64,000 bases of DNA. Source: an uncultured Planctomycetia bacterium (lineage in GTDB: Bacteria; Omnitrophota; Gorgyraeia; 1-14-0-20-64-10). The notes below the pieces were generated by a model. That model made no database searches, was not told the origin of the DNA, and saw nothing but the letters and a program-made list of their open reading frames with translations. Below, piece by piece: positions 822-63,690 of this stretch; position 1 is the stretch's first letter, and every line of letters starts with the position of its first letter. The DNA is taken from positions 6,683 to 70,682 of the forward strand of contig CAZQXN010000004.1 of the NCBI GenBank assembly GCA_964597545.1, written 5' to 3'. A program made the translations under genes and the position numbers.

Positions 822-1738
822 GTGTTTTCCTGGATAAGACCACTCGGGTTATCGTTCAGGGGATTACCGGCAGGGCCGGTTCGTTCCACGCGACCCAGAT
901 GCTGGAGTATGGCACGCAGATTGTTGGGGGTGTTACCCCAGGGCGAGGCGGACAGCAGTGGGGGGAGCTTCCGATCTTTGATACCGTTGAGGAGGCGGTG
1001 GAAAAAACAGGCGCCACCGCCACCGCCATCTTTGTCCCTGCCCCACTGGGAGCCGATGCCATCTTAGAGGCCGTAGAGTCCAAGGTGAATCTGATTGTTG
1101 TCATCACTGAAGGTATCCCGGCACAAGAGATGCTTAAGGTCAAAGCGGTGCTTAAAAACAAAAGGGGTCAGACCCCCAAAGAGAAGGGGTCAGACCCTGT
1201 GATCATCGGTCCCAACGGCCCTGGGATCATTACCCCGGGCGAGGCTAAAATCGGCATCATGCCCGGCTACATCCACCGCCCAGGTTCCATCGGGGTGGTA
1301 TCTCGCTCCGGCACCTTAACCTATGAGGCAGTTTGGCAGTTGACCCAACTGGAGTTAGGACAATCCACCTGTATTGGCGTTGGTGGGGATACCCTCCCTG
1401 GAACCGGCTTTGTTGAGATTTTGGAATGTTTTGAGGCTGATCCTGCCACGCGCGCCATAGTTCTGATCGGTGAGATCGGAGGCTCTGCCGAAGAAGAGGC
1501 CGCTCGTTTCATCCGCGCCCGTGTTCATAAGCCGGTCGTTGCTTTTGTAGCCGGAGCTACCGCACCCGCGGAAAAGCGCATGGGTCATGCCGGCGCGGTG
1601 ATTGCCCAGGGGAAGGGGACCCATGCCTCCAAGATTGAGGCTCTAACTCAAGCCGGTGTCACCGTGGCCCAGAACCCTGCCCTCATTGGAAAGACCCTTG
1701 CCGAATGCCTTGCCGGACACAAGAAGCATGTAGGATGA
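818..1738 (+). CDS. sucD: Succinyl-CoA synthetase alpha subunit, with an unusual in-frame insert at about 1141-1200
   Basis: [45 protein letters not shown]...[41 protein letters not shown] is a canonical SucD. Translationally coupled to sucC. Confidence 0.9.
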
Positions 1739-16053: not shown

Positions 16054-16270
16054 AAGGTCCGTATTCATACTACAAGTATGGCACATTGGAGAAAAAATAG
16101 ACAAGTTCAGCAATCTAAAATTGGTACGATTAACTCATTGGGGGAGGGTGGTGGATTCAAGCGACGGTCGGAAAGCAGCCAAGACAGGTTCAGGGACCAA
16201 AGAGCAGTTTGTTAACCTTGCATAGAAAACTGGTTGACATTTACTCCTCCCGTAAGGGATAACGGTACTC

Positions 16271-16362
16271 TCAAGCTTTTCCGAGAATGTCATCCTCGCC
16301 GAAGCGAGGATCCTCGATCGAGTCGAGGATAGCGTTCGATTCCCGCTTGCGCGGGAATGACA
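16271..16362. repeat. Cluster of three consecutive perfect hairpins nested in an outer TGTCAT/ATGACA inverted repeat, in the bioB 5' region
   Basis: TCCTCGCcgaaGCGAGGA, TCCTCGAtcgagTCGAGGA and TTCCCGCttgcGCGGGAA, flanked by gaaTGTCATcc ... ggaATGACAcc. Confidence 0.5.
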
Positions 16363-16382: not shown

Positions 16383-17363
16383 ATGAGGTACCAGGTCCAA
16401 ACCATTGCCGAGCGGATCCTTGAGGGCAAAGGTTCTATTGCCTTTGACGAGGCAGAGGGGCTCATTGCCCTGGAGGCTTGGCCTGAGATCCTGGAGCTGG
16501 CGGCATGGGCCTTGAGGATCAGGGAGAAGTTCACCGGCCAGCAAGCCGACACTTGCTCCCTGATCAACGCCAAATCCGGCAGATGCCCTGAGGACTGCGC
16601 ATTTTGCAGTCAGTCGGGCCGCGCCGATACCGATATCCCCACCTATCCGCTGGTGGACCCCGAGCAGATTGTCCAGCGCGCAAAAGAGGCCAAGGCCTTT
16701 GGGGCCCAGCGCTTCTGCATCGTCACCGCCACCGGTTCTGTCTCGGACAAAGACCTTCCGGTCTATTGCGAGGCGATCCGGCGCTTAAAAGAAGAGGTGG
16801 GTATTGTACCGGAATGTTCCCTCGGGTTCTTGACAGAAGAGCAGCTCCTGCGCCTCAAAGCGGCCGGCATGGTCCGATACAACCACAATTTAGAGACCGC
16901 CCAGAGCCATTTCCCTAAGATCTGCACCACCCACACCTACCAGCAGAGGCGCGAGATTATCCAGATGCTCAAGCGCCATGGTGTGGAGGCCTGCTGCGGC
17001 GGCATCTTGGGGCTAGGAGAGTCCAGGCGGCAGAGGTTGGAGCTGGCCTTTGCCTTGGCCGAGCTGGAGGTGGAGTGCGCTCCGATCAATATCTTAAACT
17101 CCCGCGCCGGGACACCATTGGAGAGCAGCGCTCCACCTGCCCCTCAGGAGATCATCAAAACCATCGCCATCTTCCGTTTTATTCTGCCTCGGACCCAGAT
17201 CAAACTGGCAGGAGGGCGGGAGGCGGCCTTAAGAGAGTTTCAAACCATGGCCTTGCTGGCAGGGGCCAACGCCTTGATCATCGGAGGGTATCTCACCACC
17301 CAGGGCCGCGAGCCTTACGAGGATCTTCAGATGCTTGAGGAGGCGGGATTTACCGTCTCATGA
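16383..17363 (+). CDS. bioB: Biotin synthase (radical SAM)
   Basis: Cys triad CPEDCAFC, plus FCIVTATG...GGILGLGES, typical of BioB. Confidence 0.9.
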   Translation: MRYQVQTIAERILEGKGSIAFDEAEGLIALEAWPEILELAAWALRIREKFTGQQADTCSLINAKSGRCPEDCAFCSQSGRADTDIPTYPLVDPEQIVQRAKEAKAFGAQRFCIVTATGSVSDKDLPVYCEAIRRLKEEVGIVPECSLGFLTEEQLLRLKAAGMVRYNHNLETAQSHFPKICTTHTYQQRREIIQMLKRHGVEACCGGILGLGESRRQRLELAFALAELEVECAPINILNSRAGTPLESSAPPAPQEIIKTIAIFRFILPRTQIKLAGGREAALREFQTMALLAGANALIIGGYLTTQGREPYEDLQMLEEAGFTVS

Positions 17364-18085
17364 TCTCCCTGGCCGAGAAGCGGATATTGGTGATGGGGGC
17401 GACCGGTACAATCGGCCGGACCATCCTCGAGGAGGCCAAAGGGTACGGGGCATGGGTAGCTGGGTCCTACTGGCGCAGCGCAGATAAAGCTCGAGAGCTC
17501 CAGTCACAGGGTGTTTGGATGGTTCAGGCCGATTTGACTGACCGCTCCCAGGCACGCGCCTGTGTTCAACAGGTTTTGGCAGAGGCCGGGCACTTGGATG
17601 GTTTGGTCTACGCTGCCGGCAACGCAGCCGACCACACCCTGACAAAATTAAGCGAAGCGGATTGGGATCAAGTCTTCAAGCTGCACCTGGGTGGTTTGGT
17701 GGCTTGCGCTCAAGAGGTGCTGCCCAGCATGCGGCGCCGGGGCCGCGGCAAGATCATCGCACTCGGTTCCATGGCAGGCCAGACTGGTCGGATAGGGCAA
17801 GCCAATTACAGCGCTGCCAAGGGGGCGACAGTAGGCTTTATCAAGACCTTGGCCCGGGAGGCCGGCCGCTTCGGGGTGAGCGCCAATGTGATCTGTCCGG
17901 GCTTCGTTGAATCTGAGATGACTCGATCTGCCCCTCCCGCTGCCTGGGATCAGGCCCGAGCCGATTCGGTCCTAGGGACACTTTCCAGCGCTCAAGTGGT
18001 TGCCTCTTTTTCCGGTTGGCTCCTCTCAGATCTGTGTCAGGGTGTGACCGGCCAGGTCTTTCATCTCGACAGCCGAATCTTATAG
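17360..18085 (+). CDS. Short-chain dehydrogenase/reductase, FabG-like 3-oxoacyl-ACP reductase family
   Basis: Rossmann motif VMGATGTIGRTI and catalytic YSAAK (YxxxK); SDR fold. Coupled to bioB (ATGA). Confidence 0.75.
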   Translation: MISLAEKRILVMGATGTIGRTILEEAKGYGAWVAGSYWRSADKARELQSQGVWMVQADLTDRSQARACVQQVLAEAGHLDGLVYAAGNAADHTLTKLSEADWDQVFKLHLGGLVACAQEVLPSMRRRGRGKIIALGSMAGQTGRIGQANYSAAKGATVGFIKTLAREAGRFGVSANVICPGFVESEMTRSAPPAAWDQARADSVLGTLSSAQVVASFSGWLLSDLCQGVTGQVFHLDSRIL

Positions 18086-19295: not shown

Positions 19296-20723
19296 ATGGT
19301 TTCTTCTGATTTACAGACTCGTTACCTCAAGGCACAATTGGCCTTTCTGGATGGCCAGATGCTTATGGACCCCAGCGTCAATGATCAAGTCGGATTTGAT
19401 TTTCAAGGTCTAAGGCGCAGCTACTTTGATGACCCAAAGCACGGGCAGTCCAAGTTTGTCGCGCACTCAGGGCGTGTCTGGATCTATGACGTGGCCCTAT
19501 CGATCTACGCAGACCTTAAATCCAAACGGTTCCAGCAGGCTGTCCATCAGGCTGATCGGGTGGTCCAGCTGGCGCAGAGGGAAGAGGAGCGAGGTTTCCA
19601 GGGGCTGTGGCACTTTTCCTACAACACGAAAGAGGACAGCTTCATCGATCCGCGTGGGCCCACCGGCGCCAATGCCTGGTGCTTGAATGCCCTCTACGCC
19701 TGCGCGCTGGAACGCGGGGATAGGGCGCTGTTGGCTTGGCTGAACCAGAAGGTAGAGAGCTACCTCTTTGGCGAGCAGGTGATCAACCGCAAAGATCCAC
19801 GCCACGGCCTCATTCGATCTGGGCGCTACAACGCCGATGACCTCGCTCGGGAAGATTCCATGGGATATGACGTGTACAGAGGAGACCTGAATCATTCCTA
19901 CGAACACGTTATTTTGGAACATTGCGCCGATGCTGCCGGAACATTCCGGCTGGCCTTCCGGGCCAACCGGCGGTTGGATCCAAAGAACAAACCGTTTCTC
20001 GAGATCCTCATCGAGCGTCATGACTGGCTCATTCAGGGGATGCGGCGCTGTTTCTGGCAGGGGGATCATTTTGTTTCTGCCCTGGATGGCCAAGGGCAAT
20101 TGTACCGGGGAAGAGACGGTCAGCCCAGCGTTGCCGTGGACAACAACACCTGGTCAGCCCACATCTTTGTGCCCTATGACTTAGAGCTAGCCCGTTCGGC
20201 AGCTCGCTACGTGGAGGATCGGTTCATCACCCAGGTCCCTCCGGCTATGCTGGAAGATCTTCCATCTGACTCCACGCAGGCAGGTTCCGTGCAGGAGGGG
20301 CTGGAGGGGTTGTATTACTTCCCGGACACCTTTGCCGATCCCTTTGTCCAGATTCCTGACCAGAGACGTGAAAAAGTAGAAAAACTTCTCCACCCGGAGG
20401 CTGCCTTGGGGTTTGTTCTGTTCCTCCTCGGTTTGGCCGATCACCTCTCGGGTTCGGAGCAAGAACGCTTGCGCCAACGAGCACTGAAGCTCTACGAGGA
20501 TACCGCCAATCTCCAGGGACTCTACGGTGCGCACGCCGCCCCTTACGCAAGCGTCAACATTCCTCCGATCTTCTCCACCCTCCACTCTGTGACGACGGCT
20601 GCATGCGGAGTGATTACCACTAGGATCCTGCAGGGGGCACCCAGCGATGATTTCATCGGGGTGATGCCGCCCAAGGAGATGACAGTTGCAGGTCAAGCGC
20701 CTGCCCGCTCCATTGATGACTAG
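19296..20723 (+). CDS. Hypothetical protein within the bio operon (475 aa), unknown function
   Basis: Intact ORF between bioF and bioD-bioA. No diagnostic motif recognised; composition is alpha-helical and enzyme-like. Confidence 0.5.
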   Translation: MVSSDLQTRYLKAQLAFLDGQMLMDPSVNDQVGFDFQGLRRSYFDDPKHGQSKFVAHSGRVWIYDVALSIYADLKSKRFQQAVHQADRVVQLAQREEERGFQGLWHFSYNTKEDSFIDPRGPTGANAWCLNALYACALERGDRALLAWLNQKVESYLFGEQVINRKDPRHGLIRSGRYNADDLAREDSMGYDVYRGDLNHSYEHVILEHCADAAGTFRLAFRANRRLDPKNKPFLEILIERHDWLIQGMRRCFWQGDHFVSALDGQGQLYRGRDGQPSVAVDNNTWSAHIFVPYDLELARSAARYVEDRFITQVPPAMLEDLPSDSTQAGSVQEGLEGLYYFPDTFADPFVQIPDQRREKVEKLLHPEAALGFVLFLLGLADHLSGSEQERLRQRALKLYEDTANLQGLYGAHAAPYASVNIPPIFSTLHSVTTAACGVITTRILQGAPSDDFIGVMPPKEMTVAGQAPARSIDD

Positions 20724-22827
20724 AGGTCTTTTTGTTACCGGTACCGGAACAGAGGTAGGAAAAACCGTTGTAACGGCGGCCCTGGCCCATGCCTTCCTTA
20801 GACAGGGAGTGAATGTTGGGGTTGTCAAGCCTATAGCGACCGGCTGCCAGCGGCGCGGCGGCAAACTTATCTCATCGGATGCCGAGAAGCTTCTCCGGGC
20901 AAGCGGCGCTGGGGACCCCACGGAATGGGTCTGTCCCTATCGCTTCAGGCCTCCGGTTGCTCCTTCAGTTGCGGCAGGCAAACAGGGCATCTCCTTCTCT
21001 CGAATCGATCAGGCCATGGAGCGCTTGAGCAGCCGCCATGATCTTCTTTTGGTTGAGGGGATCGGCGGGCTTCTGGTGCCCCTGGATGCCCGCCGCACCG
21101 TTGTGGATCTGGCAGCGCACCTGAAGCTTCCCCTGCTTGTGGTGGCCCATGCGGGGCTAGGGACCCTGAATCATACCCTCCTTACCCTTGAGGCGGCTCG
21201 ATCCAGGAACCTTGAAGTAGCTGGCATTGTCTTGAATCAGCGCAGTCCCACTCCCTCTCTGGCAGAGCAGACCAATCCAGCGGTATTGCGCAAATTGGGT
21301 CAGGTGCCGGTTCTAGGGGTAATCCCTCACCTGAGATTCCCCTCCCCAGAGCAGGTAGCCGGCTACCTTAAGGCCAAAAAGATCTTTCAGAAAATCGGTA
21401 CCAGGTACCAAACCCAAACCCCTTGTACAAAAGGGTCAGACCCTTTCGTACAGCGCCTACGGAGCGGTCACGTACGAAAAGTTCAGACCCTGAGCCATCG
21501 GTACCTGGTACCAAAGGCCGTACCAAAGGCTCAAGCGAAGCGTTTGATCCAGAGCGACCGCAAGCGGCTGTGGCACCCCTTTACCCAGATGCAGGATTGG
21601 GAAAAGGAGGAGTCGCTGATCATCCGCTCTGCCCGCGGGGTGTGGCTTACCGACATCCACGGCCGTCGCTATCTCGATGGTGTCTCCTCCCTCTGGGTCA
21701 ATCTCCACGGCCACCGCCATCCGGCCCTGGACCAGGCCTTAAAACAGCAGGTTGATCGAGTGGCCCACTCCACCCTTTTGGGGGCAGCCAACATTCCCTC
21801 CATCGAGCTGGCAGAGGAGATCTTGCGGGTGGCCCCCAAGAATCTCACACGCGTTTTCTACTCCGACAGCGGCTCTACTGCTGTTGAAATTGCACTCAAG
21901 ATGGCTTTTCAGTACTGGCAGCAAAACGGCCGCCCGCGCCGCCGTCGCTTTGTCCACTTTGTCGATGCCTACCATGGGGATACGGTGGGCTCTGTCTCGG
22001 TCGGCGGGATCGACCTGTTTCATCAGGTGTACAAGCCCCTGCTCTTTAAGGGGTTCAAGGTTCCCTTGAACAAGATTAAGCCCTTTGAGGAGACCCTGCG
22101 CAAGCACCACCCCGAGATTGCCGGTGTCGTGGTAGAGCCCTTGGTGCAAGGGGCGGCTGGGATGGCGACCCAACCCAAAGGGTGGCTCAAGCAGGTAGAA
22201 AGGCTCTGCCGCCGCTACGGACTGCTGCTGATTGCTGATGAGGTGGCAGTAGGTTTCGGGAGAACCGGCACGATGTTTGCCTGCGAGCAGGAGAAGGTGC
22301 GTCCAGATCTGCTCTGTTTGGCCAAGGGGTTAAGCGGCGGCTACCTTCCTCTGGCGGCGACCCTGGCCTCTGAGCGAATTTACAAAGGGTTTTTGGGCTC
22401 CTATGCCTCCAAGCGGACCTTTTTTCATGGGCACAGCTACACCGGAAATCCCTTGGCCTGCGCGGTTGCTTTAGAGAGCCTGCGTCTTTTCCGCCGCGAG
22501 AAGGTGCTGCAGAGACTTAAGCCTAAAATCCGGCTCTTTACACAGGAGCTCAAACGCTTCTGGGAACTTCCCCATGTAGGAGATGTGCGCCAGCAGGGGC
22601 TGATGGCTGGCATCGAGCTAACCCAAGATAAAGCAAAAGGCACCCCTTATCCCTGGGAAACCAAGATGGGGATTCAAGTCTGCAGTGCGCTCAGAGCCGA
22701 GGGCATTCTCTTGAGACCCCTGGGCAACGTGGTGGTGCTCATGCCCCCTCTGGTCATCTCCCGAGAGGAGCTTAACTTTCTTTGCCGCAAGACCTATACT
22801 GCTGTGGATCGAGTGACTGGCATTTGA
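20716..22827 (+). CDS. bioDA: Dethiobiotin synthetase fused in-frame to adenosylmethionine-8-amino-7-oxononanoate aminotransferase (BioD-BioA), linker encoded by a MITE-like repeat
   Basis: - N-terminal GTGTEVGKTVVTAAL P-loop (BioD).
- C-terminal WHPFTQMQ...YSDSGSTAVEIALKMA class-III aminotransferase (BioA).
- Single ORF with no stop between them.
- A possible internal TTG at 21544 could also start bioA independently. Confidence 0.8.
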   Translation: MTRGLFVTGTGTEVGKTVVTAALAHAFLRQGVNVGVVKPIATGCQRRGGKLISSDAEKLLRASGAGDPTEWVCPYRFRPPVAPSVAAGKQGISFSRIDQAMERLSSRHDLLLVEGIGGLLVPLDARRTVVDLAAHLKLPLLVVAHAGLGTLNHTLLTLEAARSRNLEVAGIVLNQRSPTPSLAEQTNPAVLRKLGQVPVLGVIPHLRFPSPEQVAGYLKAKKIFQKIGTRYQTQTPCTKGSDPFVQRLRSGHVRKVQTLSHRYLVPKAVPKAQAKRLIQSDRKRLWHPFTQMQDWEKEESLIIRSARGVWLTDIHGRRYLDGVSSLWVNLHGHRHPALDQALKQQVDRVAHSTLLGAANIPSIELAEEILRVAPKNLTRVFYSDSGSTAVEIALKMAFQYWQQNGRPRRRRFVHFVDAYHGDTVGSVSVGGIDLFHQVYKPLLFKGFKVPLNKIKPFEETLRKHHPEIAGVVVEPLVQGAAGMATQPKGWLKQVERLCRRYGLLLIADEVAVGFGRTGTMFACEQEKVRPDLLCLAKGLSGGYLPLAATLASERIYKGFLGSYASKRTFFHGHSYTGNPLACAVALESLRLFRREKVLQRLKPKIRLFTQELKRFWELPHVGDVRQQGLMAGIELTQDKAKGTPYPWETKMGIQVCSALRAEGILLRPLGNVVVLMPPLVISREELNFLCRKTYTAVDRVTGI
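21393..21517. mobile_element. MITE/REP-like hairpin element with terminal inverted repeats AATCGGTACCAGGTACCAAACCC / CCTTTGGTACCAGGTACCGATG, inserted in-frame in the bioD-bioA linker
   Basis: - Terminal GGTACCnGGTACC units are in inverted orientation.
- Internal GGGTCAGACCCTTTCGTAC / GTACGAAAAGTTCAGACCC inverted pair.
- The same 19-mer recurs at 57034-57052. Confidence 0.6.
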
Positions 22828-37607: not shown

Positions 37608-37655
37608 CCGGTACCGGGTACAATGTACCCGGTACAATGTACCCGGTACATTTTT
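37608..37655. repeat. GGTACC-family hairpin repeat (two CCGGGTACAaTGTACCCGG copies plus T-run), probable bidirectional terminator between dcd and gpmA
   Basis: ggtaccgggtacaatgtacccggtacaatgtacccggtacattttt. Confidence 0.55.
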
Positions 37656-42841: not shown

Positions 42842-42868
42842 GATCTAAAATCTGGTACCGTAAAATCT

Positions 42869-42916
42869 GGTACCGGGTACACTTTTCAACAGTGTACCCG
42901 GTACCTTTGTTTTGTT
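42869..42916 (+). terminator. 15-bp perfect hairpin of the GGTACC repeat family followed by a T-rich run
   Basis: GGTACCGGGTACACTtttcaacAGTGTACCCGGTACC then TTTGTTTTGTT. Confidence 0.5.
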
Positions 42917-42954
42917 GACGGATCCCTTCCGTACCTGGTACCGTCTTTGTTGTC

Positions 42955-48001: not shown

Positions 48002-48032
48002 ATCGGTACCTAAATCGGTACCAGGTACCGAT
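48002..48032. repeat. GGTACC-family palindromic repeat (AATCGGTACCaGGTACCGATT)
   Basis: Perfect 10-bp-arm palindrome directly after the purH stop. Confidence 0.5.
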
Positions 48033-48097
48033 TGTTGTTGCAACTGCATGGCACTAGGGCGGTTGCAAGCTACCTGGCACCGATAGGTTTTCATGAG

Positions 48098-51346: not shown

Positions 51347-54300
51347 ATGCAAACACAGAAGTTAGCCTATCAACTCACAGCACTCATCCTATCGGCAGCT
51401 CTGACGCTGCCCCCTTCTGCGTACGCGCTGCGCCCGCAAGAGAAACAGGAAGCTTCCGGCCTAGAGGAGCTTACCAAGGCCCTGCGCTTAGGCAATCCAG
51501 ACGCTGCCCTCGACACCCTTGTTCAAAGTGTCGCTGAGCGCCTCACCCTACCTGTCCCAGCTACCGGCCAGGAGGAAGGACCGGCAGATAGGATAAGGAC
51601 CCTGCTGGAGAGATCCCCCAATACCGAAACCATCTTTCACATCATCGGTCGGGATCTTCTGAGCACCTACCCCGACCTGAGAGGGTTTCATGATCTCCAT
51701 TCCTCTTTTGCTGTCGAGGGAATATCTAATTCATCTTCGGACTTGATCAGGAGGCATGCTGGGCCAGGCCACCTAGAAGTTTGGTATCACTACCCACAGA
51801 AAGCTGTCTGGATCTCGTGGGAAGAGATGCAATATTCTGCAACGAATTCCAGACGCGGATTTCAGAGGAAAGTTTACCTCTCTACACCCGCCAGGGAGAG
51901 GTTAGGCGTAGAGGGATTCCTTCGGCACCTCCTTGGTCCAGGGCAACTCAATGTTCCCAGTGAACTTTGGGATGGCGATGAAGCAATGTTCCAGGTCCTT
52001 GAAGACCTGGCGACCCTCTCCTCCGCCGGCCAGGAGGAAGCGGAACAAATCCATCAATTCCCAAAAGACGTTATCTCTGAGGAAGAATTACACCTACTTC
52101 CAGCCCAGATATTTCTTTGGGGCATGTTTCGTTTCAATCAAGTGGTTGAGGACCGTTTTGTCGTAAGGCTGAAGAATCGAAGAAACAAAATAGAGATAAT
52201 CCCAGGAGATCCAGAAGATCTTCCAGAAGACGCAGCCATGATGCGCTTGGAGGTACAGGCTCAAGATACCGTGACCGTTACGGTAGAGGGAGCGGCATCT
52301 CCAGAGATTAGAGAGATGGCGGCGGATATCGTCTCGGATTGGCTGAGCAAAGTTTTCCAAGTCAACCAGGAGCTTAAAGCCAAGCAGGCCGAGCACGAGG
52401 GTTCTTTTAAAGATAAAGCCAACGCCATCAAGAGACGAGCTTGGGACGAGTTTTCTGAAAGCTTGACGCCGCTTAAAGCAGCCCTTTCCGCTGGCCAAGA
52501 GGAGGCGGCGCTGGATGAGATTGAGGCAGCCATCGAAACAAAAAGGAGCCTCGACTTCACGCCTACAACCATTCTAAAGCATGGCGATGTCCTGGGCCGT
52601 TTCCATGGAGCCAGGGGCGCTTCGGCCGATGTTTATGTGGAGGCAGATCACGTCCTAGGCAAAGTACTCAACTCCCCCTTCTTCCTGAGAATGGTCCTGG
52701 CACAGCATCTTGGCAAGACCATTGCCGGTGCCACTCCCCTTTCAGTGGATCGACATAGACCCCCCCCGGACAATGTCCGCTTTGCCCTGAATCTTCCCTA
52801 TAGGGATTATCTTGAGGCGATGGAGCCAAGCTTAGAAATGCTGGAGCGCTTAATTGACGATCCAGGGGAGATGGTAGAGGTAGTGGTAGTGGAACCGGCC
52901 CCTCATTCTGGAGGGGCTTGGGTCATTTATAAGGGAGGCCCAGGAGAGGCTTGGGTGCCCGGTTTCATCCCTACCCGCTTTGTGTTTGCCAAGAGTGTGC
53001 CGCATAGTGCAGCCCCTGGGAGATGGTGGCTGCACTCGAAGATCGGACAGACCATTCGCGTTAGGCCGGACAGTGTTAATCGGAGGGGCCATTTTCCGCA
53101 GGCAGTCTTTGCCGCGGACCAGTCCTTTAATGCGGTTCGACGAGAGATTCGCCTGGCCGAACGAGAACTTCAGCAGCGAGACAAAGAGCATATCCCAGTC
53201 CGAGTGATTCTCGTTCACGAAGCTCTGCAGGGAGTCGAGGTGATGTATCGGAGTCAAAACGGCGGGTGGATAAGCGGTTTTATCCCCCCCTCCCGCATCT
53301 CCTTTCATTCTAAAGGACGGCCTGTCGGAAGGTTGCCCCATCTGCTTGACCGCTTGGGTTGGTTCCTCTCCCGGGTTGGCCAGGATATTCCAGCGGATCT
53401 TATCGCGATTGACAGCAGCAGAGGGCTTCCCAGAGCCACCTTCTCTGTCCGCTTGTCTTTGGAGGAAGTGCTCCAGGAGATGCAGCCAGCCCTTGAGCGG
53501 TTAGGTCAGGCAGCGGCCAATCCGAACGATCGGGTTGATGTGGAGTTGGCCTTGTTGGGCAGTAGAGAGGATGCAAACAGTATGAGGTATAGCCATTGGA
53601 ACCAGACAAGCTGGGTTCCGGGCTTCATTCCTGCGAGCCTATTCCTGGATGATCCTCACCAGAAAGTGCATACCTCCATTATCCGCGCTTGGTTATGGCG
53701 GCACCGGCATGAAAAGATTCCGGTGGCCGTAAAAGATGTTACACACAATCGACACCTTCCCAGGGCAGCCTTCAGCCTTGGACTTACAATTGACCAACTT
53801 AAAGCGGAGATTGAGCCTGCAGCCGAGCAGTTGGAAGGCTTAGGCCCGGGAGAGCTTCAGGTTCCATGTGAGGTGATACCCGCTACTGTAGAGGCCGGAG
53901 CAGAGGTGTTGTATCGCGGGCCCAGAGGAACGTGGATCCCAGGTTTTATTCATAAGAGCTACATCCGCTTTTTAGATAGAACAGTAGCTCCTCATGCCCT
54001 TTGGAGTCAATGGCTGAAAAGGCAAGTTGGCCGCAAGATCAATGTTACGTTTAATCACATCAAGCGCAATGATCCCATCCCGTCCGCGCTTTTTTCGTTG
54101 ACTCTGCCTGAGGATGTCCGGCCCTCTTTCCGTCCGGGCAAGACAGCTTCCGCTGGCCAGGAGGAGTGGTCAGCGGATGTTTGGAATCGACTTCACGCCG
54201 TCGGGCTGCATGGGACAACTGGCCCCTTGCTCAAGGAAATCATCCAGTATTACTCCAGGCAGGGGGCCGACGCCGATTTCGAGGGTGTCCGGGAAAAATG

Positions 54301-57001
54301 GGAAGCAATTGCCCGGATCATCCCTGATGCTCCGAGTCTTTCCGGTGTGGCAGAGGGTGTTGTGAGCGGTTTTATAGAGCGGGAGCTTCCCCTTTGGAAA
54401 CTTTCCGGGGTCCTCCTTCGCCGAGGCAGGTATGGTGAGGGTCACGGTGTTCTGCTGATTGGAGACGCCCGGCATGCTACAGTGAAAGCGCCCCAGACCA
54501 TTCAAATCAACCGAGGTTTAACCGGCCTCGCTCTTTTCCTTGTGGGAGATCCGAATATGAGCTGGGTTAAGCCACCACCCAAAGCTCCGGATTGGCGGTT
54601 CCTTGCTCAAAACAATCTTGTTGGCTTCGTAAGCGATGGCCAGCTCATTGTTGGCTCCAATCCCACGACAGAGAACCCCTCTGGACTGCGCGCCAAGATA
54701 GGTTGGCGGGATGACGACGTACCCTTTGGGTCAACAAGAATCCAATCCAGAGGAGAGTTTATTCCTGTTGAGCGCATCATCAAACTGGAAATGAAGGATA
54801 CCAAACCCTCAAAGATTGAGGCGGTTTGGGTCGGCTCTTCGCACGTAGCAATTCCGGAAGCGTTGGTACAGATCCTTGAGAGAATCGACGCCATTCATTT
54901 GGAGATCCAAGAGGGGGATCGTTTGGGGCAGTACCGGGAGTATGCTGGGCGCCTGCATCGAGAGTATTTTGCCGGCCTGGAAGAGGTTCAAGACGAGGTG
55001 GTGCGGCAGGCATGGGACGAATTGCGTCGGATTGTTACCCTAGAAGAATTTCAGGTTGACGATGAGGAGGCTCTTGTTCGGTTTGGGAAATCCACAGGGG
55101 CTAAAGTGGTTAAGAAAACAATTACAGGACGCCCCATCGTTACTATTGGACCGGAAATGTTCCGGAAATTGACCGCTTTTCGCCAGACAGGCCAACTTCC
55201 GCCTGGTACCCCCGCCAAGCATTATGAAGAACTACGAAACAATGATGAAGTGAATGAACCTGGCGTTTATGTGAGTCCTACCGGACTGAAAATGGCGCAT
55301 CAGGAGTTGGCTGCCGCAGGCATTGATTTTCGTTATACGAAAGGAATCTTCTTTCATGAGGCGCTGGAGGAAGGGTTTGATGGTTCCGGAATCACTGACC
55401 CCATCTTGGCTCTATGTGAACAGCATACGGACCCAAGGGTGATCGAAGAGGAGCTTCTGGTCAATGCGTTAATCGGGGAAGAAAGCGTAGAGGCCTCACG
55501 GGCAGGTTATCAATTCGCCAAACAGAGAGTTGATCAAAACCTCAGCAATAGCCAGCGCTTCTTCGCGTTTGTTAAAGACCGTTACGAGAGCGGAGGCCGT
55601 TCTACCACATTTGATGAGATTGAAGCCTCGCTTGGCCCAACAAGCCGGTATTATCGAACACTCCAATGGGTTGTTGATACCCCGTACGACCAACTCCTCG
55701 CATTGGCCCAAAGACGCTGGGAAGGATCCGATTACTCCTCTGCCGTTCCTCTCGCAGCCGGCCTGGAGGAGGAGACAACCAGAGTCCTGGCTCCTACGCT
55801 GGAAGTTCCAATTGCTGCCCTGGAAGAGGGTAATCTAGAGCAAGCACTGCAAGGATCTGCCTATCTCCTGGAGCCTAAGCCGACAACAGATCAACTCGAA
55901 ACATCTTTTGTGCAATTCCCCGGTGAACTCTGGGCTGTTGGATTCAGGGATCGAGACAATATTCCGCATCTCGCTGTTGGAGCAGGAAACAGGGATCACG
56001 CTATTGGCATAACTGATTTCTTAACCAAGGCATACAGCGCGGCGCCCGTCAGCGTTGACGTCGTTCACAAGCATCCGGAGCCCCCCTTTCCTTCGAAGGG
56101 AGATTTTGATCTATTGAGAACCTGGAAGCTACGCCAGGGAGGGCGCGTAGGCCGACAGCGCAATTGGGTTGAGATTCGCCGAGATGGAGTGTGGCGACTC
56201 CTTGGGTACGGGAGAGATTATAAAGAGACGGCAGATTTCCAAAGAGAGATTCAGGTTCAGATTTGGAAAAGAGGCGAGAGGGCGCAGAACGAGTTCTATC
56301 TTCCAGGTACTGGAGGTTTACGCGTTGCGCTTGTCGCGGACCAAGAGGTTTTTGGCATCCCGGGCCTTGATTATTTCTATCAGTTGATCGACCAGCCTGA
56401 GACAACAGGGGTCAGGTTCGAAGATGCCGTTGGCCACTGGGTTCTCTGGAGGGCAGACAACACCTGGGAATCTATCTTCGAATCACAAGGCTATACTCGT
56501 TCTGCCACTAGCTTTTCGACAGCGAGCAGGGCAGGGCCGGTGGAAGCGGCAGGCGCGCTGCTTACGCGGTTGGCCCAAGCCGCAGAAGGCCAACCCGGCG
56601 TTTTGGTGCTCACCCCTGAGGCCATCCAGGATCCAGCCGGCCTAGAGGAGCTTATCAAGCGCCTCCCCCCAGAGCTCTTACGACGGACCATCTGGTTCAA
56701 CACAGGAGTTGCCCTGGCCGAATACCTGCACTCCCTTGAACCCACCCTCCAGATCATAAAGGACTACAACACCCAAGCCCTGGTCCTAAAACTCCTCAGC
56801 AGGGAAGAGGCAGAGAAGATCACCACCACCTCTAAAGATCTTGCCCTCTACCTCCAAGAAGTCCTCCCCATGACCGTCACCTACCTTAAGGTCCTCACCG
56901 TCAAGCTGATCCTGGCGGCCCTAGGGGTTCCCATCGAACAGCTCAACCAGATCGACCCCACCAAGCTCGAAGCCCTCTTCGCACCGCTGGTAGCCGCCTA
57001 A
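51347..57001 (+). CDS. Giant secreted protein (1884 aa), unknown function, with four W[VI]PGFIP-type internal repeats and recurrent A-x-G-(L/Q)-E-E motifs
   Basis: - Signal peptide MQTQKLAYQLTALILSAALTLPPSAYA.
- Repeats (GEAWVPGFIPTRF..., GGWISGFIPPSRI..., TSWVPGFIPASLF..., GTWIPGFIHKSYI...), each followed by a basic segment and L..A.FS..L.
- C-terminal 135-aa module is duplicated at 63200-63624. Confidence 0.7.
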   Translation: MQTQKLAYQLTALILSAALTLPPSAYALRPQEKQEASGLEELTKALRLGNPDAALDTLVQSVAERLTLPVPATGQEEGPADRIRTLLERSPNTETIFHIIGRDLLSTYPDLRGFHDLHSSFAVEGISNSSSDLIRRHAGPGHLEVWYHYPQKAVWISWEEMQYSATNSRRGFQRKVYLSTPARERLGVEGFLRHLLGPGQLNVPSELWDGDEAMFQVLEDLATLSSAGQEEAEQIHQFPKDVISEEELHLLPAQIFLWGMFRFNQVVEDRFVVRLKNRRNKIEIIPGDPEDLPEDAAMMRLEVQAQDTVTVTVEGAASPEIREMAADIVSDWLSKVFQVNQELKAKQAEHEGSFKDKANAIKRRAWDEFSESLTPLKAALSAGQEEAALDEIEAAIETKRSLDFTPTTILKHGDVLGRFHGARGASADVYVEADHVLGKVLNSPFFLRMVLAQHLGKTIAGATPLSVDRHRPPPDNVRFALNLPYRDYLEAMEPSLEMLERLIDDPGEMVEVVVVEPAPHSGGAWVIYKGGPGEAWVPGFIPTRFVFAKSVPHSAAPGRWWLHSKIGQTIRVRPDSVNRRGHFPQAVFAADQSFNAVRREIRLAERELQQRDKEHIPVRVILVHEALQGVEVMYRSQNGGWISGFIPPSRISFHSKGRPVGRLPHLLDRLGWFLSRVGQDIPADLIAIDSSRGLPRATFSVRLSLEEVLQEMQPALERLGQAAANPNDRVDVELALLGSREDANSMRYSHWNQTSWVPGFIPASLFLDDPHQKVHTSIIRAWLWRHRHEKIPVAVKDVTHNRHLPRAAFSLGLTIDQLKAEIEPAAEQLEGLGPGELQVPCEVIPATVEAGAEVLYRGPRGTWIPGFIHKSYIRFLDRTVAPHALWSQWLKRQVGRKINVTFNHIKRNDPIPSALFSLTLPEDVRPSFRPGKTASAGQEEWSADVWNRLHAVGLHGTTGPLLKEIIQYYSRQGADADFEGVREKWEAIARIIPDAPSLSGVAEGVVSGFIERELPLWKLSGVLLRRGRYGEGHGVLLIGDARHATVKAPQTIQINRGLTGLALFLVGDPNMSWVKPPPKAPDWRFLAQNNLVGFVSDGQLIVGSNPTTENPSGLRAKIGWRDDDVPFGSTRIQSRGEFIPVERIIKLEMKDTKPSKIEAVWVGSSHVAIPEALVQILERIDAIHLEIQEGDRLGQYREYAGRLHREYFAGLEEVQDEVVRQAWDELRRIVTLEEFQVDDEEALVRFGKSTGAKVVKKTITGRPIVTIGPEMFRKLTAFRQTGQLPPGTPAKHYEELRNNDEVNEPGVYVSPTGLKMAHQELAAAGIDFRYTKGIFFHEALEEGFDGSGITDPILALCEQHTDPRVIEEELLVNALIGEESVEASRAGYQFAKQRVDQNLSNSQRFFAFVKDRYESGGRSTTFDEIEASLGPTSRYYRTLQWVVDTPYDQLLALAQRRWEGSDYSSAVPLAAGLEEETTRVLAPTLEVPIAALEEGNLEQALQGSAYLLEPKPTTDQLETSFVQFPGELWAVGFRDRDNIPHLAVGAGNRDHAIGITDFLTKAYSAAPVSVDVVHKHPEPPFPSKGDFDLLRTWKLRQGGRVGRQRNWVEIRRDGVWRLLGYGRDYKETADFQREIQVQIWKRGERAQNEFYLPGTGGLRVALVADQEVFGIPGLDYFYQLIDQPETTGVRFEDAVGHWVLWRADNTWESIFESQGYTRSATSFSTASRAGPVEAAGALLTRLAQAAEGQPGVLVLTPEAIQDPAGLEELIKRLPPELLRRTIWFNTGVALAEYLHSLEPTLQIIKDYNTQALVLKLLSREEAEKITTTSKDLALYLQEVLPMTVTYLKVLTVKLILAALGVPIEQLNQIDPTKLEALFAPLVAA

Positions 57002-57024
57002 ACCCAAACCTAAAACCTGTACCC

Positions 57025-57053
57025 GGTACCAAGGGGTCAGACCCTTTCGTACC
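57025..57053. repeat. GGTACC / GGGTCAGACCC-family hairpin after the giant gene (contains the 19-mer GGGTCAGACCCTTTCGTAC also found at 21434)
   Basis: GGTACCAAGGGGTCaGACCCTTTCGTACC is an imperfect hairpin. Confidence 0.5.
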
Positions 57054-57081: not shown

Positions 57082-57110
57082 TTGACATCGTTAACAGGGC
57101 GGTGTACCTT
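57082..57110 (+). promoter_or_regulatory. Putative promoter (TTGACA - 17 nt - TACCTT) preceded by an ATATGCAACAT motif
   Basis: TTGACA at 57082-57087. The motif TTGATAAATATGCAACAT resembles the RAYT promoter region. Confidence 0.3.
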
Positions 57111-57119
57111 AGTGCCCCC

Positions 57120-57680
57120 ATGGACACCAAGGTTTCCTGCGAAAGACTCCTCGCCAAGCAAGTTGAGCACCACATTCTCCTCATCCGGGGCCAGAAGGTG
57201 ATGTTGGATTCGGACCTGGCCGCGCTCTATGGCGTCAGCGTTGGAAGATTAAACGAGGCAGTCAAACGCCGGGTCAATCGGTTTCCCTCCGATTTCATGT
57301 TTCAGTTGACGCCTCAAGAGGCGCAATCTCTAAGGTCGCAAATTGCGACCTTAAACTTGAAATCGCAAATTGCGATATCAAGTTTAAATTGGGGTGGGCG
57401 GCGCCACCCCCCGTTTGCATTTACCGAGCAAGGTGTTGCTATGCTCTCCACCGTCCTTAACAGTGAGCGGGCGATTCGCATCAACGTTGCGATCATGCGG
57501 GCCTTCGTCAAGCTCCGGGAGATGCTTTCTGCACACAAGGCGCTGGCTCGGAAGCTGACTGAGCTGGAACGCAAACTCGAAGGGCATGATGCGCAAATTC
57601 ACTCACTCTTTGAAGCCATCCGGCAGCTTATGGCACCGCCCAAACGCGTTCGCCGGAAAATCGGGTTTCAGGCGGGGTAG
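57120..57680 (+). CDS. ORF6N-domain (KilA-N-like, phage-associated DNA-binding) protein, paralog 1
   Basis: HILLIRGQKVMLDSDLAALYGV...FMFQLT...PFAFTEQGVAMLSTVLNSERAIRINVAIMRAFVKLR is the ORF6N domain. Confidence 0.7.
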   Translation: MDTKVSCERLLAKQVEHHILLIRGQKVMLDSDLAALYGVSVGRLNEAVKRRVNRFPSDFMFQLTPQEAQSLRSQIATLNLKSQIAISSLNWGGRRHPPFAFTEQGVAMLSTVLNSERAIRINVAIMRAFVKLREMLSAHKALARKLTELERKLEGHDAQIHSLFEAIRQLMAPPKRVRRKIGFQAG

Positions 57681-57688
57681 CGGGTAGC

Positions 57689-59230
57689 GTGCTGGCCAAG
57701 GTTCATTCTGCAGCGCTCGTTGGCTTGACCGCCGTTCCGGTTGCGGTAGAGGCGGATGTCTCCAACGGTTTGCCCGGGGTGACTGTTGTGGGCCTGCCGG
57801 ATACCGCGGTTCGGGAGTCCAAGGTTCGCATCCGCTCAGCCATCAAAAACAGCCAGTACGACTGGCCCATGAGCCGGATGACGGTCAATCTCGCTCCTGC
57901 TGATGCTCGGAAAGAAGGTTCAGCCTTTGATTTTCCGATGGCGCTGGGGCTCTTGGCTGCCTCCGGCCAGATGGATCCGACTGCCTTGGCCGACACCGTC
58001 ATCTTGGGGGAGCTGGCGCTGGATGGCTCCTTAAGGCCGGTTCCAGGGATTCTGGCGGTTGCCTTAAGCCTTCAGGGCAAGGGCAAGCGCCTTCTTCTTC
58101 CGGCAGCCAATGCGGCTGAGGCAGCCATGGTTGAAGGGGTTGAAGCCTACCCCTTAAGCTGCCTTCCTCAAGCGATTCAGTTTCTGGAAGGGCGAGAGGA
58201 GGTCAGCCCGGCGCAGGTCGATTTGACAAAGCTTCTCCAGAATGATCCTGCGTCAGATGGCCTGGATTTTTCAGAGGTGAAGGGGCAGGTGACCGCCAAG
58301 CGAGCCATTGAGATTGCCGTTGTTGGAAGCCACAATCTGCTTTTGCTCGGTCCACCCGGTGCCGGCAAGACCATGCTGGCTGAGCGGATTCCAACAATCC
58401 TGCCGGAGATCTCAGCACCCGAGGCGTTGGAGACTACCTTAATCTACAGCGTAACCGGGCACCTGCAATTGAGTCGGCCCCTTCTGAATAAGCGGCCCTT
58501 TCGTTTTCCGCATCACACGGTATCCGACGTGGGGCTTGTCGGAGGCGGTTCCCCTCCCAAGCCAGGGGAGATCTCCCTGGCGCATCACGGGGTACTCTTC
58601 TTAGATGAACTGCCGGAGTTCCCCCGCTCAGTCTTAGAAAGCTTGCGCCAACCTTTGGAGGAGGGGAGGATCACGGTCTGTCGAGCCAGAGGAACCACCA
58701 CCTTCCCGGCTAAGTTCATGTTGGTTGCCGCCATGAATCCATGCCCGTGCGGTTTTGCCGGGGATGTCACCAAGAATTGTCTTTGCACCCCCAGCCAGTT
58801 CCTCAAGTACCGCTCCAGAGTCTCCGGCCCCTTGATGGACCGGATTGACCTCCACGTTGAGGTCCCGGCCCTTTCCTACAGCGAGCTGACTGAGGAAACT
58901 CCAGCAGAGTCCTCCACGGCTATCCGGATGCGAGTAACCCAGGCTCGTGCTCGTCAACAAAGGCGCTTTCAGGCTACCCCCAGCTGTTTTGCCAACGCCC
59001 AAATGCGCCACCGGCACCTCAAGCGCTTCTGTTCCCTCTCTGAGGAGAGCCGCCAGCTCCTCAAGGATGCCATCTCGGGCTTGGGTCTCTCTGCCCGCGC
59101 CTACCACAAGATCCTTAAAGTTGCCCGAACCATTGCTGACCTGGAAGCTGCCCCTGATATCGTTCCTCACCACCTGGCAGAGGCGATCCAATACCGCCTT
59201 CTGGACCGCTCCTATGCCGACTCCCTCTAA
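57689..59230 (+). CDS. comM: Mg-chelatase-like AAA+ ATPase YifB/ComM
   Basis: Lon-protease-like N-domain, Walker [21 protein letters not shown] Walker B, C-terminal ChlI-type domain. GTG start. Confidence 0.85.
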   Translation: MLAKVHSAALVGLTAVPVAVEADVSNGLPGVTVVGLPDTAVRESKVRIRSAIKNSQYDWPMSRMTVNLAPADARKEGSAFDFPMALGLLAASGQMDPTALADTVILGELALDGSLRPVPGILAVALSLQGKGKRLLLPAANAAEAAMVEGVEAYPLSCLPQAIQFLEGREEVSPAQVDLTKLLQNDPASDGLDFSEVKGQVTAKRAIEIAVVGSHNLLLLGPPGAGKTMLAERIPTILPEISAPEALETTLIYSVTGHLQLSRPLLNKRPFRFPHHTVSDVGLVGGGSPPKPGEISLAHHGVLFLDELPEFPRSVLESLRQPLEEGRITVCRARGTTTFPAKFMLVAAMNPCPCGFAGDVTKNCLCTPSQFLKYRSRVSGPLMDRIDLHVEVPALSYSELTEETPAESSTAIRMRVTQARARQQRRFQATPSCFANAQMRHRHLKRFCSLSEESRQLLKDAISGLGLSARAYHKILKVARTIADLEAAPDIVPHHLAEAIQYRLLDRSYADSL

Positions 59231-59741
59231 CCAGAAGATCATCGTTGATCAGGTAGAGCGCCGAATCCTTCTTATTCGAAGCCAGAAGGTAATGTTGGAC
59301 TCGGACCTGGCGAAACTCTACGGGATTGCAACGAAGAAATTGAACCAAACAGTCAGACGTCACATCAAACGCTTTCCACGGGATTTTATGTTGCAGCTGA
59401 CCTGGGAAGGGGTAGAGAAGCTTTCAAGGTCACAATTTGTGACCTTGAAACATGGGCAGAATATCAAATATCGGCCCTACGTTTTCACAGAACAGGGAGT
59501 AGCGATGCTCTCGTGTGTTCTGAACAGCGAGCGAGCCATTCAGGTTAACATCGCCATCATGCGGGTTTTTGTGAAGCTCCGGAAGATGTTGACCAACCAC
59601 AAAGGGTTGGCTCAGAAACTGGAAACGCTGGAAAAGCGATACGACGCGCAATTCAAAATAGTTTTTGACGCGATTCGCAAGCTCATGATACCCACCCATC
59701 GGCTTCGGCGTCGCATTGGGTTCCATTCACAGAAGCGTTAG
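59214..59741 (+). CDS. ORF6N-domain protein, paralog 2
   Basis: RILLIRSQKVMLDSDLAKLYGI...FMLQLT...PYVFTEQGVAMLSCVLNSERAIQVNIAIMRVFVKLR. Start at the internal Met overlapping the comM end. The ORF-track start at 58947 lies inside comM. Confidence 0.65.
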   Translation: MPTPSNQKIIVDQVERRILLIRSQKVMLDSDLAKLYGIATKKLNQTVRRHIKRFPRDFMLQLTWEGVEKLSRSQFVTLKHGQNIKYRPYVFTEQGVAMLSCVLNSERAIQVNIAIMRVFVKLRKMLTNHKGLAQKLETLEKRYDAQFKIVFDAIRKLMIPTHRLRRRIGFHSQKR

Positions 59742-60049: not shown

Positions 60050-60385
60050 CCCACTGCAGCTCAATACGCAGGCGGCAGTCACTCGCACAACTCGCACTCG
60101 TGGGACGCTCACCAGGAGCGGCGGAATCGGGGCGGATTTGACGTAACTATTGATCAGGTATTAGGTTAACGAGATTTGTGCTTGCGGGCCCGGAACGCTG
60201 GGGGGCCGAAAAATTTGATGAAATTACCCCCTTGCAGCTTAGGAGATAGTGTATACTTTCTTACTGTAAGGAACAATATAGGTCTGAAAAAGGCAAACTA
60301 TCCGAAAGGGTAGGGCGTAACGCCATAGAGCCGTCAGGGTTATGTAATGTAACCCCCGGCAGTCGGTTGCCAGATCAAACGGTAA

Positions 60386-60424: not shown

Positions 60425-60502
60425 TTGTACACTAGCTTGATTCTTGGCGGAAGAAGATATGGTGGAATCTCAAAGGGATTGAAGGAAAAGGGGGTTGCGG
60501 GA

Positions 60503-62973: not shown

Positions 62974-63624
62974 GTGGCCGCTATCGAGATTGCGGTGGCC
63001 GGCTGCCACAACCTCCTCTTGATTGGCCCGCCCGGTGCCGGCAAGACCATGTTGGCTGAGCGGATTCCAACAATCCTGCCAGAGATCTCAGCACCCGAGG
63101 CATTGGACACCACCTTGATCTACAGCGTGACTGGGCATCTTCAGCTGAGTCGACTCCTGTTGAATAGACGGCCCTTTCGCTTCCCGCACCACCTTGCTCA
63201 AGAGGCAAAGGGCCGCTCCGGCATGCTGGTACTAACCCCGAAAGCCATCCAGGACCCAGCCGGCCTGGAGGAACTCGTTAAGCGCCTGCCTCCAGAGCTC
63301 TTGCAGCGGATCATCTGGTTCAACACAGGTGTTGCCCTGGCCAAACGCCTGCATGCCCTGGAACCCACCCTCCAGATCATAGAGGACTACAACACCCAAG
63401 CCCTGGTCCTAAAACTCCTAAGCCAGGAAGCAGCAGAAAAGATCTCCACCACCTCTGAATCCCTCACCCTCTACCTCCAAGAAGTCCTCCCCATGACCGT
63501 CACCTATCTGAAAGCCCTCACCGTCAAGCTGATCCTTGTCGCCTTAGGGGTCCCCATGGAGCAGCTCAACCAGATCGATCCCACCCAGCTAGAAACCCTC
63601 TTCGCACCGATTACCGCTGCTTAA
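62974..63624 (+). pseudogene. Chimeric duplicated fragment: internal comM segment (Walker A region) fused in-frame to a copy of the giant protein C-terminal module
   Basis: - Residues [42 protein letters not shown]...RPFRFPHH are about 85% identical to comM residues about 205-290.
- The following residues, ...[26 protein letters not shown]...LFAPITAA, are about 80% identical to giant-protein residues about 1750-1884.
- The fragment is followed by the same GGTACC repeat. Confidence 0.55.
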
Positions 63625-63690
63625 CCCTAAAATCGGTACCAGGTACCAAACCCACAAATCGGTACCTGGTACCAAGAGCTGGTACCAAAA
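63625..63690. repeat. GGTACC-family repeat (AATCGGTACCAGGTACCAAACCCAC ... AATCGGTACCTGGTACCAAG ... GGTACC)
   Basis: The same terminal unit as the bioD-bioA element; arms in opposite a/t-centre orientation. Confidence 0.55.

Follow-up and report, generated by a model that had tools for sequence, protein, structure and literature searches.

The Rickettsia palindromic elements (RPEs) are palindromic repeats which are found between genes and also, in frame, inside housekeeping genes, where they occupy sites compatible with the fold and function of the protein and where their peptide is translated (PMC10969869). MITEs, the miniature transposable elements bounded by inverted repeats, occasionally produce in-frame fusions with host open reading frames (ORFs) as well (PMC10969869). 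The REPINs, doublets of repetitive extragenic palindromic (REP) sequences, consist of two inverted palindromic units with a short spacer which together form a hairpin; they are situated mostly just downstream of genes and persist at orthologous sites (PMC3337134; bioRxiv 10.1101/2022.05.22.493013). Concerning the gene dealt with here, it has been stated that a fusion of dethiobiotin synthetase (BioD) with 7,8-diaminopelargonic acid (DAPA) aminotransferase (BioA) exists only in plants and fungi and that in bacteria each of the enzymes has a gene of its own (PMC10829540). We analyzed a stretch of 64,000 nt (termed the window) from the metagenome-assembled genome (MAG) of an uncultured Planctomycetia bacterium placed by GTDB in the Omnitrophota (contig CAZQXN010000004.1, positions 6,683 to 70,682), in which a composite palindromic repeat is read through in frame between the BioD and the BioA domain of one gene, bioDA. 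Taken together, it is likely that the bioDA fusion is ancestral in Omnitrophota and that its linker was colonized by two lineage-specific families of short palindromic repeats. These small hairpin repeats of Omnitrophota are not described in the literature searched, and a search on palindromic repeats in this phylum returned nothing relevant.

The bioDA gene of the window is an uninterrupted reading frame coding for 713 aa and contains the following features:

20686..22827 (+), bioDA, single ORF for the fused dethiobiotin synthetase (BioD) and DAPA aminotransferase (BioA), from ORF and Pfam analysis
20722..21336 (+), BioD domain, Pfam AAA_26, residues 13-217, E = 1.7e-48
21393..21531 (+), composite palindromic repeat, read in frame to give residues 237-281, from sequence, RNA fold and AlphaFold2 (AF2) model
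21541..22824 (+), BioA domain, beginning at RLIQSDRKRLWHPFT, which corresponds to residue 4 of Bacillus subtilis BioA (3DOD) in a structure-based alignment
21544..21546 (+), in-frame TTG (Leu of KRLIQ), proposed internal start of BioA for which no supporting signal was found, from sequence

The ATG at 20716, which overlaps the stop codon of the upstream gene, is likely the real start of bioDA. Pfam Aminotran_3 spans residues 306-701 (E = 5.9e-103), and the BioA part aligns end to end with 3DOD, its RLIQSDRKRLWHPFT start lying directly past the element. Because the alignment with 3DOD begins there, the stretch from the last BioD helix to RLIQSDRKRLWHPFT can be regarded as the linker. With two complete domains in one ORF and BioD at the N-terminus, the gene product is, as judged from its sequence, still a bifunctional BioD-BioA protein. 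Domain order (BioD N-terminal, BioA C-terminal) and the catalysis of two consecutive steps are shared with Arabidopsis BIO3-BIO1 (DTBS-DAPA aminotransferase), but the latter is eukaryotic, whereas the fusion described here is bacterial and clade-wide. The AF2 model of the whole protein has a mean pLDDT (predicted local distance difference test) of 75 with confidently modelled domains, and the pLDDT drops below 50 at residues 243-276. The element contributes about 36 residues of peptide, probably disordered, between two intact catalytic domains.

The element has a composite architecture with two GGTACC-W-GGTACC units on the outside and GGGTCAGACCC hairpins in between:

21394..21412 (+), left unit ATCGGTACCAGGTACCAAA, core GGTACC-A-GGTACC, from sequence
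21424..21452 (+), inner hairpin TGTACAAAAGGGTC-A-GACCCTTTCGTACA with 14-nt arms, a GGGTCAGACCC module of which further copies are located at 57034 and 1165/1187
21472..21491 (+), second, degenerate GTAC-RAAA-GGTCAGACCC module, direct repeat of 21425-21444 and inverted partner of 21432-21451
21497..21515 (+), right unit ATCGGTACCTGGTACCAAA, core GGTACC-T-GGTACC, pairing with the left unit over 13 bp, from sequence and fold
21508..21530 (+), 12-nt tandem duplication, two copies of GTACCAAAGGC (VPKAVPKA), not present in the relative L081

An earlier sequence-only reading of the window had described a repeat with inverted terminal units and inner arms that is read through in frame between BioD and BioA, and all of this was confirmed. 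The outer units GGTACCAGGTACC (21397-21409) and GGTACCTGGTACC (21500-21512) are 100% complementary over 13 nt and the inner arms (21432-21451 and 21472-21491) are 85% complementary over 20 nt; the reported peptide IGTRYQTQTPCTKGSDPFVQRLRSGHVRKVQTLSHRYLVPK (IGTRYQ...RYLVPK) equals residues 237-277 of the single 713-aa product. The palindromic nature of the 13-mer core has the consequence that the two 19-mers (ATCGGTACCWGGTACCAAA), taken with their flanks, are direct repeats of 95% identity as well. The tandem duplication of GTACCAAAGGC carries the element past the end given earlier, so that its size, terminal inverted cores included, amounts to 125-139 nt. As RNA the element of the window folds with -56.9 kcal/mol (z = -6.1). 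No match to an Rfam family was found.

The fusion is not confined to the genome studied. Nearly all of the best 120 protein clusters (47-85% identity; in the following, P numbers denote protein clusters and L numbers DNA loci or contigs of relatives) carry PF13500 and PF00202 in one protein of 650-757 aa, and the named ones among them are almost all assigned to Candidatus Omnitrophica/Omnitrophota. In 14 genome loci, from Omnitrophota and from MAGs labelled Planctomycetia, Nitrospinota, Firmicutes UBA4049 and Eubacteriales, the single bioDA ORF was confirmed by an ORF check. The same check led us to reject apparent fusions in Latescibacterota, Desulfofundulus, Pelotomaculum and Neomoorella, which turned out to be separate adjacent genes joined by tblastn; in Frackibacter, too, tblastn had joined bioD and bioA genes that are separate and adjacent. 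The view that such a fusion is unusual in bacteria thus holds for the cultured Firmicutes and Latescibacterota loci checked, but not for the Omnitrophota, in which it is clade-wide. At the level of sequence, the Omnitrophota data contradict the statement that the fusion is restricted to plants and fungi (PMC10829540).

The spacing between the motifs ERTNP and WHPFT, which enclose the linker, is 71 aa in most relatives as compared with 107 aa in the window, 86 aa in P0002, 82 aa in P0042, and 75 aa in P0010. The linker flanks (YLKxxxIxxxI ... RLxxxDRKRLWHPFT) are retained across the relatives, and in the window about 12 central linker residues have been exchanged for 48. None of the loci L001-L080 contains the 13-mer. 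Since most fused relatives have linkers of constant length without repeats, the fusion is, on this sequence comparison, older than the element, which merely lengthens a permissive linker. The earlier proposal that the element forms the linker and mediated the fusion therefore had to be abandoned; by its own terms it would be refuted by relatives in which the linker is without repeat hallmarks, and such fused relatives were found.

The closest relative with a repeat, L081 (P0002, an independent JGI assembly), shares 85% aa identity and a syntenic bio operon. It contains both units of the window, in frame and at the same linker site; the interior comprises 39 nt versus 90 nt in the window and cannot be aligned between the two. 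The window linker is 21 aa (63 nt) longer than that of L081, the window-only 12-nt tandem duplication being counted. Over the whole gene 85.5% of the positions and 72% of the third codon positions are identical, as compared with 38 of 38 nt in the two 19-nt units. P0010/L082 and P0042/L203 make up another clade, with an aa identity of about 65% relative to the window; here GGTACC doublet pairs are found in the linker and also in a surface loop of BioD, and the loop elements of L082 and L203 agree in 38 of 39 nt versus 78% overall and 62% at third positions. The two clades (window/L081 and L082/L203) are not sisters in a neighbor-joining tree, and their insertion points are about 7 codons apart. 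We therefore favor separate insertion events in the two linkers, although the tree is star-like and the sequence comparison does not settle the matter. The BioD loop past PYRFEPPVAP carries at least five kinds of repeat-derived inserts among the relatives. The loop peptide motifs observed in P0003-P0046 are LRQAQGER...VRGELVEP, GLSPKGTVP, NRYDVPK, and RGLTLLAQKGSDPF. Recurrent peptide motifs of this type are typical of translated palindromic repeats, and the BioD loop is thereby marked as an insertion hot spot across the Omnitrophota.

Within the 64-kb window, and compared with shuffled sequences, the 13-mer was observed 6 times (0.04 expected), the 19-mer family 5 times (0.01 expected) and GGTACC 34 times (7.8 expected). 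Six GGTACC clusters can be distinguished, five of which are intergenic; these five (37610, 42854, 48005, 57025, and 63635) start 0-15 nt past a stop codon. The copies outside bioDA are the following:

1160..1200 (+), two GGGTCAGACCC units in frame within sucD, from sequence and alignment
37610..37650 (no strand assigned), intergenic copy flanked by convergent genes: GGTACCGGGTACA-ATGTACCCGGTACA repeats, then a T-run
42846..42942 (no strand assigned), intergenic array: two copies of AAAATCTGGTACC, a terminator-like structure (15-bp hairpin GGTACCGGGTACAC...GTGTACCCGGTACC with TTTGTTTT behind it), and finally CGTACCTGGTACC
48002..48035 (no strand assigned), intergenic copy between purH and folC: two copies of AAATCGGTACC and an inverted GGTACCGATT, from sequence
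57001..57053 (no strand assigned), intergenic copy 3' of the gene for a 1884-aa protein: leader AAACCCAAACC, degenerate doublet TGTACCCGGTACC and a GGGTCAGACCC hairpin
63629..63686 (no strand assigned), intergenic copy: A-unit, 13-nt spacer, T-unit and a third GGTACC, starting 5 nt past a stop codon, from sequence

The recurrence of the terminal unit at 63625-63690 and 48002-48032 and of a 19-mer at 57034-57052, as claimed before, was borne out by identical modules far above chance, namely one of 26 nt (63629-63654), one of 19 nt (57034-57052), and two of 18 nt (48012 and 63658). Over its first 26 nt the copy at 63629..63686 matches the left end of the element in bioDA exactly. The stop codon TAA of purH falls within the flank of the unit at 48002..48035, and one of the intergenic clusters is a textbook terminator-like hairpin with a T-run. 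In sucD the insert comprises 10 aa relative to Escherichia coli SucD, and the spacing from TEGIP to GPN is 29 aa as compared with 19-25 aa in 88 representatives. The coding copies are preceded by GAAAATC, the intergenic copies by CTAAAATC.

The ORF upstream of the last copy (62974-63624, +) is chimeric. Its first approximately 80 residues copy the comM/Mg-chelatase-like gene (57689-59230), the remainder is a copy of the C-terminal end encoded by the 1884-aa gene (51347-57001), and the ORF is thus a sign of segmental duplication or of rearrangement. The repeats past the two paralogous 3' ends differ, being a degenerate doublet with a GGGTCAGACCC hairpin in one case and two clean doublets in the other.

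For other genomes a metagenome scan with TCGGTACCWGGTACC was used. Among the matches listed most were single chance matches and about 15 contigs with paired units were informative. In-frame copies were found in mutS of L160 (ENRYQVPNRQSVPGT) and in gatB of L121, where three GGGGTCAGACCCC units follow past the gatB stop codon, and in L117 the C-terminal tail of a tsaE-like gene is formed by a copy. The relatives of this mutS are named as Omnitrophota. The mutS genes of P0123 and P0124/L204 (82-83% identity) are without exactly the 13 aa (39 nt) which are found in L160 and, as a variant element, in P0122/L205 (85% identity). By sequence comparison this is a clean filled-versus-empty site of 39 nt and hence a true insertion.

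The variant, in which the units have GAC/GTC, is present in L205, in L117 and, as judged from the BioD loop peptide, in P0013 and P0014; because it occurs in several genomes it is a subfamily and not a private mutation. We also considered that each genome might have its own unit variant, but L117 contains both the CAG/CTG and the GAC/GTC type. A phage origin of the repeats was dismissed, too, with just two single matches in viral contigs and no enrichment. Doublet hairpins of an A-unit and a T-unit were also seen on the low-GC contigs L093 and L156 (GC 0.38, taxon unassigned), and the 13-mer may have spread beyond the lineage of 57-68% GC studied here.

The simple form of the element, an A-unit, a spacer of 5-13 nt and a T-unit, was seen at least eight times in five genomes. 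When eight such copies covering the five genomes are aligned, 96% of the cells pair and 10 of the 14 pairs are invariant; two pairs, both in L205, are changed on both sides (C-G to G-C and G-C to C-G). This value was reached by 8 of 500 shuffles, and slid controls paired at 12-38%. Unit conservation and pairing in these sequences point to a constraint at the DNA or RNA level or to gene conversion. Among the simple hairpins of 39-45 nt, the copies checked are free of stop codons whichever of the six frames is read, and the composite of the window is open in three of six. The units of the window are 103 nt apart; in L081 the distance is 52 nt, and the simple elements have one of 25 nt. As each of these distances is 1 modulo 3, a hop or a deletion between the units would shift the reading frame, and the spacing may in this way lock the element into its site. 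We rejected a translational bypass at the hairpin, since the simple copies checked are free of stop codons, in-frame copies keep the frame and a hop would shift it.

From these observations the following course of events can be proposed. Two families, the GGTACC-W-GGTACC doublet hairpins and the GGGTCAGACCC hairpins, would have settled in the interdomain linker. The normal location of the repeats is just past stop codons, and a copy inside a gene would survive only if its length keeps the frame, if it is without a stop codon and if it lands in a surface loop or a linker. The repeats may spread by a hairpin-recognizing mechanism, similar to REPINs and their REP-associated tyrosine transposase (RAYT), or by recombination. 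The extra peptide would be functionally neutral, and the doublets would be kept intact by a constraint at the DNA or RNA level or by gene conversion.

Compared with the known systems, the behavior of the element is that of the RPEs, as it is found in frame in the linker and loop of bioDA, in mutS, gatB, tsaE, and sucD. RPEs, however, measure about 100-150 bp and encode a conserved peptide, whereas the basic unit here is a hairpin of 39-45 nt, is built from a pair of 13-nt palindromes and is read in each of the three frames. It does not belong to the RPE families; there is no sequence relation and no Rfam match, and the host is a member of the Omnitrophota and not Rickettsia. The anatomy matches that of REP/REPIN sequences, namely an inverted pair of units with a short spacer forming a hairpin, mostly located past genes and persisting at orthologous sites. 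REPs are extragenic by definition, whereas several of the copies described here are intragenic, and the 64-kb window contains no RAYT. With the MITEs (Correia, ERIC, BOX) it shares the small size, the non-coding nature and the inverted-repeat ends, terminal inverted repeats being present, but it is much shorter than is typical and neither a parent insertion sequence nor a matching transposase is present in the window. The earlier label MITE-like suits the small size and the inverted ends but is loose; a target-site duplication or transposase was not found, and the anatomy is nearer to a REPIN-type hairpin. DNA uptake sequences, which were considered as well, occur about once per kb, often in inverted pairs that act as terminators, and have a cognate competence receptor; inverted pairs past genes are found here, too, but at a density of only about 0.1 per kb.

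Several observations weigh against the colonization of the linker by mobile repeats. Among the approximately 40 ORFs of the window no transposase or RAYT was found, and no target-site duplication is recognizable at mutS, where L160/L205 and L204 are just about 82% identical. The full 125-nt composite occurs a single time in the window, and only its modules recur. In L081, L082, and L203 (16-22 kb each) doublets occur exclusively inside bioDA. That doublets recur in this linker in two separate clades exceeds what is expected for random insertion and hints at a site preference, long persistence or a function. A model in which the repeat is a passive passenger does not fully explain this recurrence together with the perfect conservation of the units. 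The conservation of the units at orthologous sites, well over that of the background, makes it unlikely that they are junk in decay.

These points lead to the question of whether the hairpin is kept in bioDA for a function, as a ribosome pause, for processing or internal initiation at TTG 21544, or as a protein-binding site on the DNA. Such a role would account for units that are perfectly conserved where the surroundings are 72-86% identical and for doublets that lie in the same linker of two clades and are the sole ones in three relatives' loci. The strong fold and the two pairs with a compensatory flip are in line with it, too, and the TTG corresponds in the alignment to Leu5 of the B. subtilis enzyme. 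Yet no convincing, conserved Shine-Dalgarno sequence was found 5' of this TTG (AAAGG is 14 nt away, and L081 has AAAAGC), Rfam contains no match, and the insertion points in the two clades do not coincide. Most fused relatives are without any such element, and the same units are located in unrelated genes and in intergenic DNA; their conservation is equally compatible with gene conversion among copies. We consider a function in bioDA unlikely. A broader version would be that the GGTACC-W-GGTACC hairpins are an actively maintained system of the Omnitrophota, REPIN/RAYT-like or recognized by another conserved protein, which persists at orthologous coding sites with compensatory and concerted evolution, the bioDA copy perhaps being co-opted as an interdomain pause or as a signal for separate BioA; this we regard as a speculative idea with a small chance of being correct.

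The repeats could also have arisen in place by slippage or duplication in a linker of low complexity, followed by gene conversion. The 12-nt tandem duplication at 21508-21530, the mosaic and variable arrangements, and the failure to find a target duplication or a transposase would fit such an origin. It is quite improbable in view of the clean presence or absence of 39 nt in mutS of relatives with 82-85% identity; moreover, identical modules of 26 nt and 19 nt lie tens of kb away and the same 13-mer is found in unrelated genes of other Omnitrophota.

Far less still can be said for a repeat insertion between neighboring bioD and bioA genes that abolished their stop and start signals and thereby created the fusion. 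The element does sit exactly between the two domains, bacteria are said to encode the enzymes separately (PMC10829540), and several other phyla have separate adjacent genes; but deeper-branching fused relatives (47-66% identity) have constant-length linkers without a repeat, and just the central dozen or so residues of a conserved linker were replaced with its flanks retained, which makes this origin highly improbable. That a mis-assembled repeat or the annotation falsely joins two genes, as may happen with repeats in a metagenome-assembled genome, is barely conceivable, since the independent JGI assembly L081 has the same units in frame at the same site, the L082 and L203 assemblies have in-frame units in their own linkers, and the fusion is present in more than 100 independent clusters.

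Some features of the neighborhood are of interest in their own right. Between bioF and bioDA a conserved 475-aa protein without a Pfam match is encoded (19296-20723, +), the stop codon of which overlaps with the ATG of bioDA. Of its 79 homologs nearly all are Omnitrophota proteins annotated as hypothetical, with the same operon position in L081, L082, and L203. Its AF2 model (pLDDT 94.9) is an (alpha/alpha)6 barrel, and the best PDB matches are the folds of mannose isomerase and AGE/cellobiose 2-epimerase (TM 0.55-0.59, 10-13% identity). This protein and the SDR protein encoded at 17360-18085 may be part of an uncharacterized route of biotin (pimelate) synthesis. Upstream of bioB a BirA-operator-like inverted repeat, TGTTAACC-N14-GGTTGACA, is located at 16210-16239 and is conserved in L081, L082, and L203; it may resemble known bioO sites. 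The GGTACC units were also considered as BirA operator and rejected; the canonical-looking site is this one, 5' of bioB, and the near-doublet situated at the start codon of bioB (16387) has no conserved counterpart in L081. The region 5' of bioB (16280-16360) contains in addition the GC-rich short hairpins GTCATCCTCGCCGAAGCGAGGATC and TCCCGCTTGCGCGGGAATGAC, the first of which is conserved in L081; they may represent a further repeat family. Two paralogous ORF6N-domain genes (57102-57680 and about 59250-59741, +) flank comM in the window, and ORF6N genes are also located near mutS in L204 and in the P0123 contig. Finally, a c-di-GMP-I riboswitch (60282-60374, +; 51.4 bits versus a gathering score of 35) is situated 5' of the ORF 60425-61645, in whose product a hydrophobic segment at the N-terminus is combined with long repeats rich in Pro, Gly, Glu, and Met (EGPAF, EGPMM).

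The attractive story of a repeat that fused two biotin genes is hereby corrected. In its place, in-frame palindromic repeats of the Rickettsia kind are documented in an uncultured phylum, with several independent examples and one clean filled-versus-empty site, and they reveal positions at which the protein is tolerant, namely the BioD-BioA linker and the BioD surface loop. Despite the statement that it is limited to plants and fungi, the BioD-BioA fusion is the rule in a bacterial clade. Annotators of Omnitrophota proteins should expect such peptides encoded by repeats and should not mistake them for frameshifts or novel domains.

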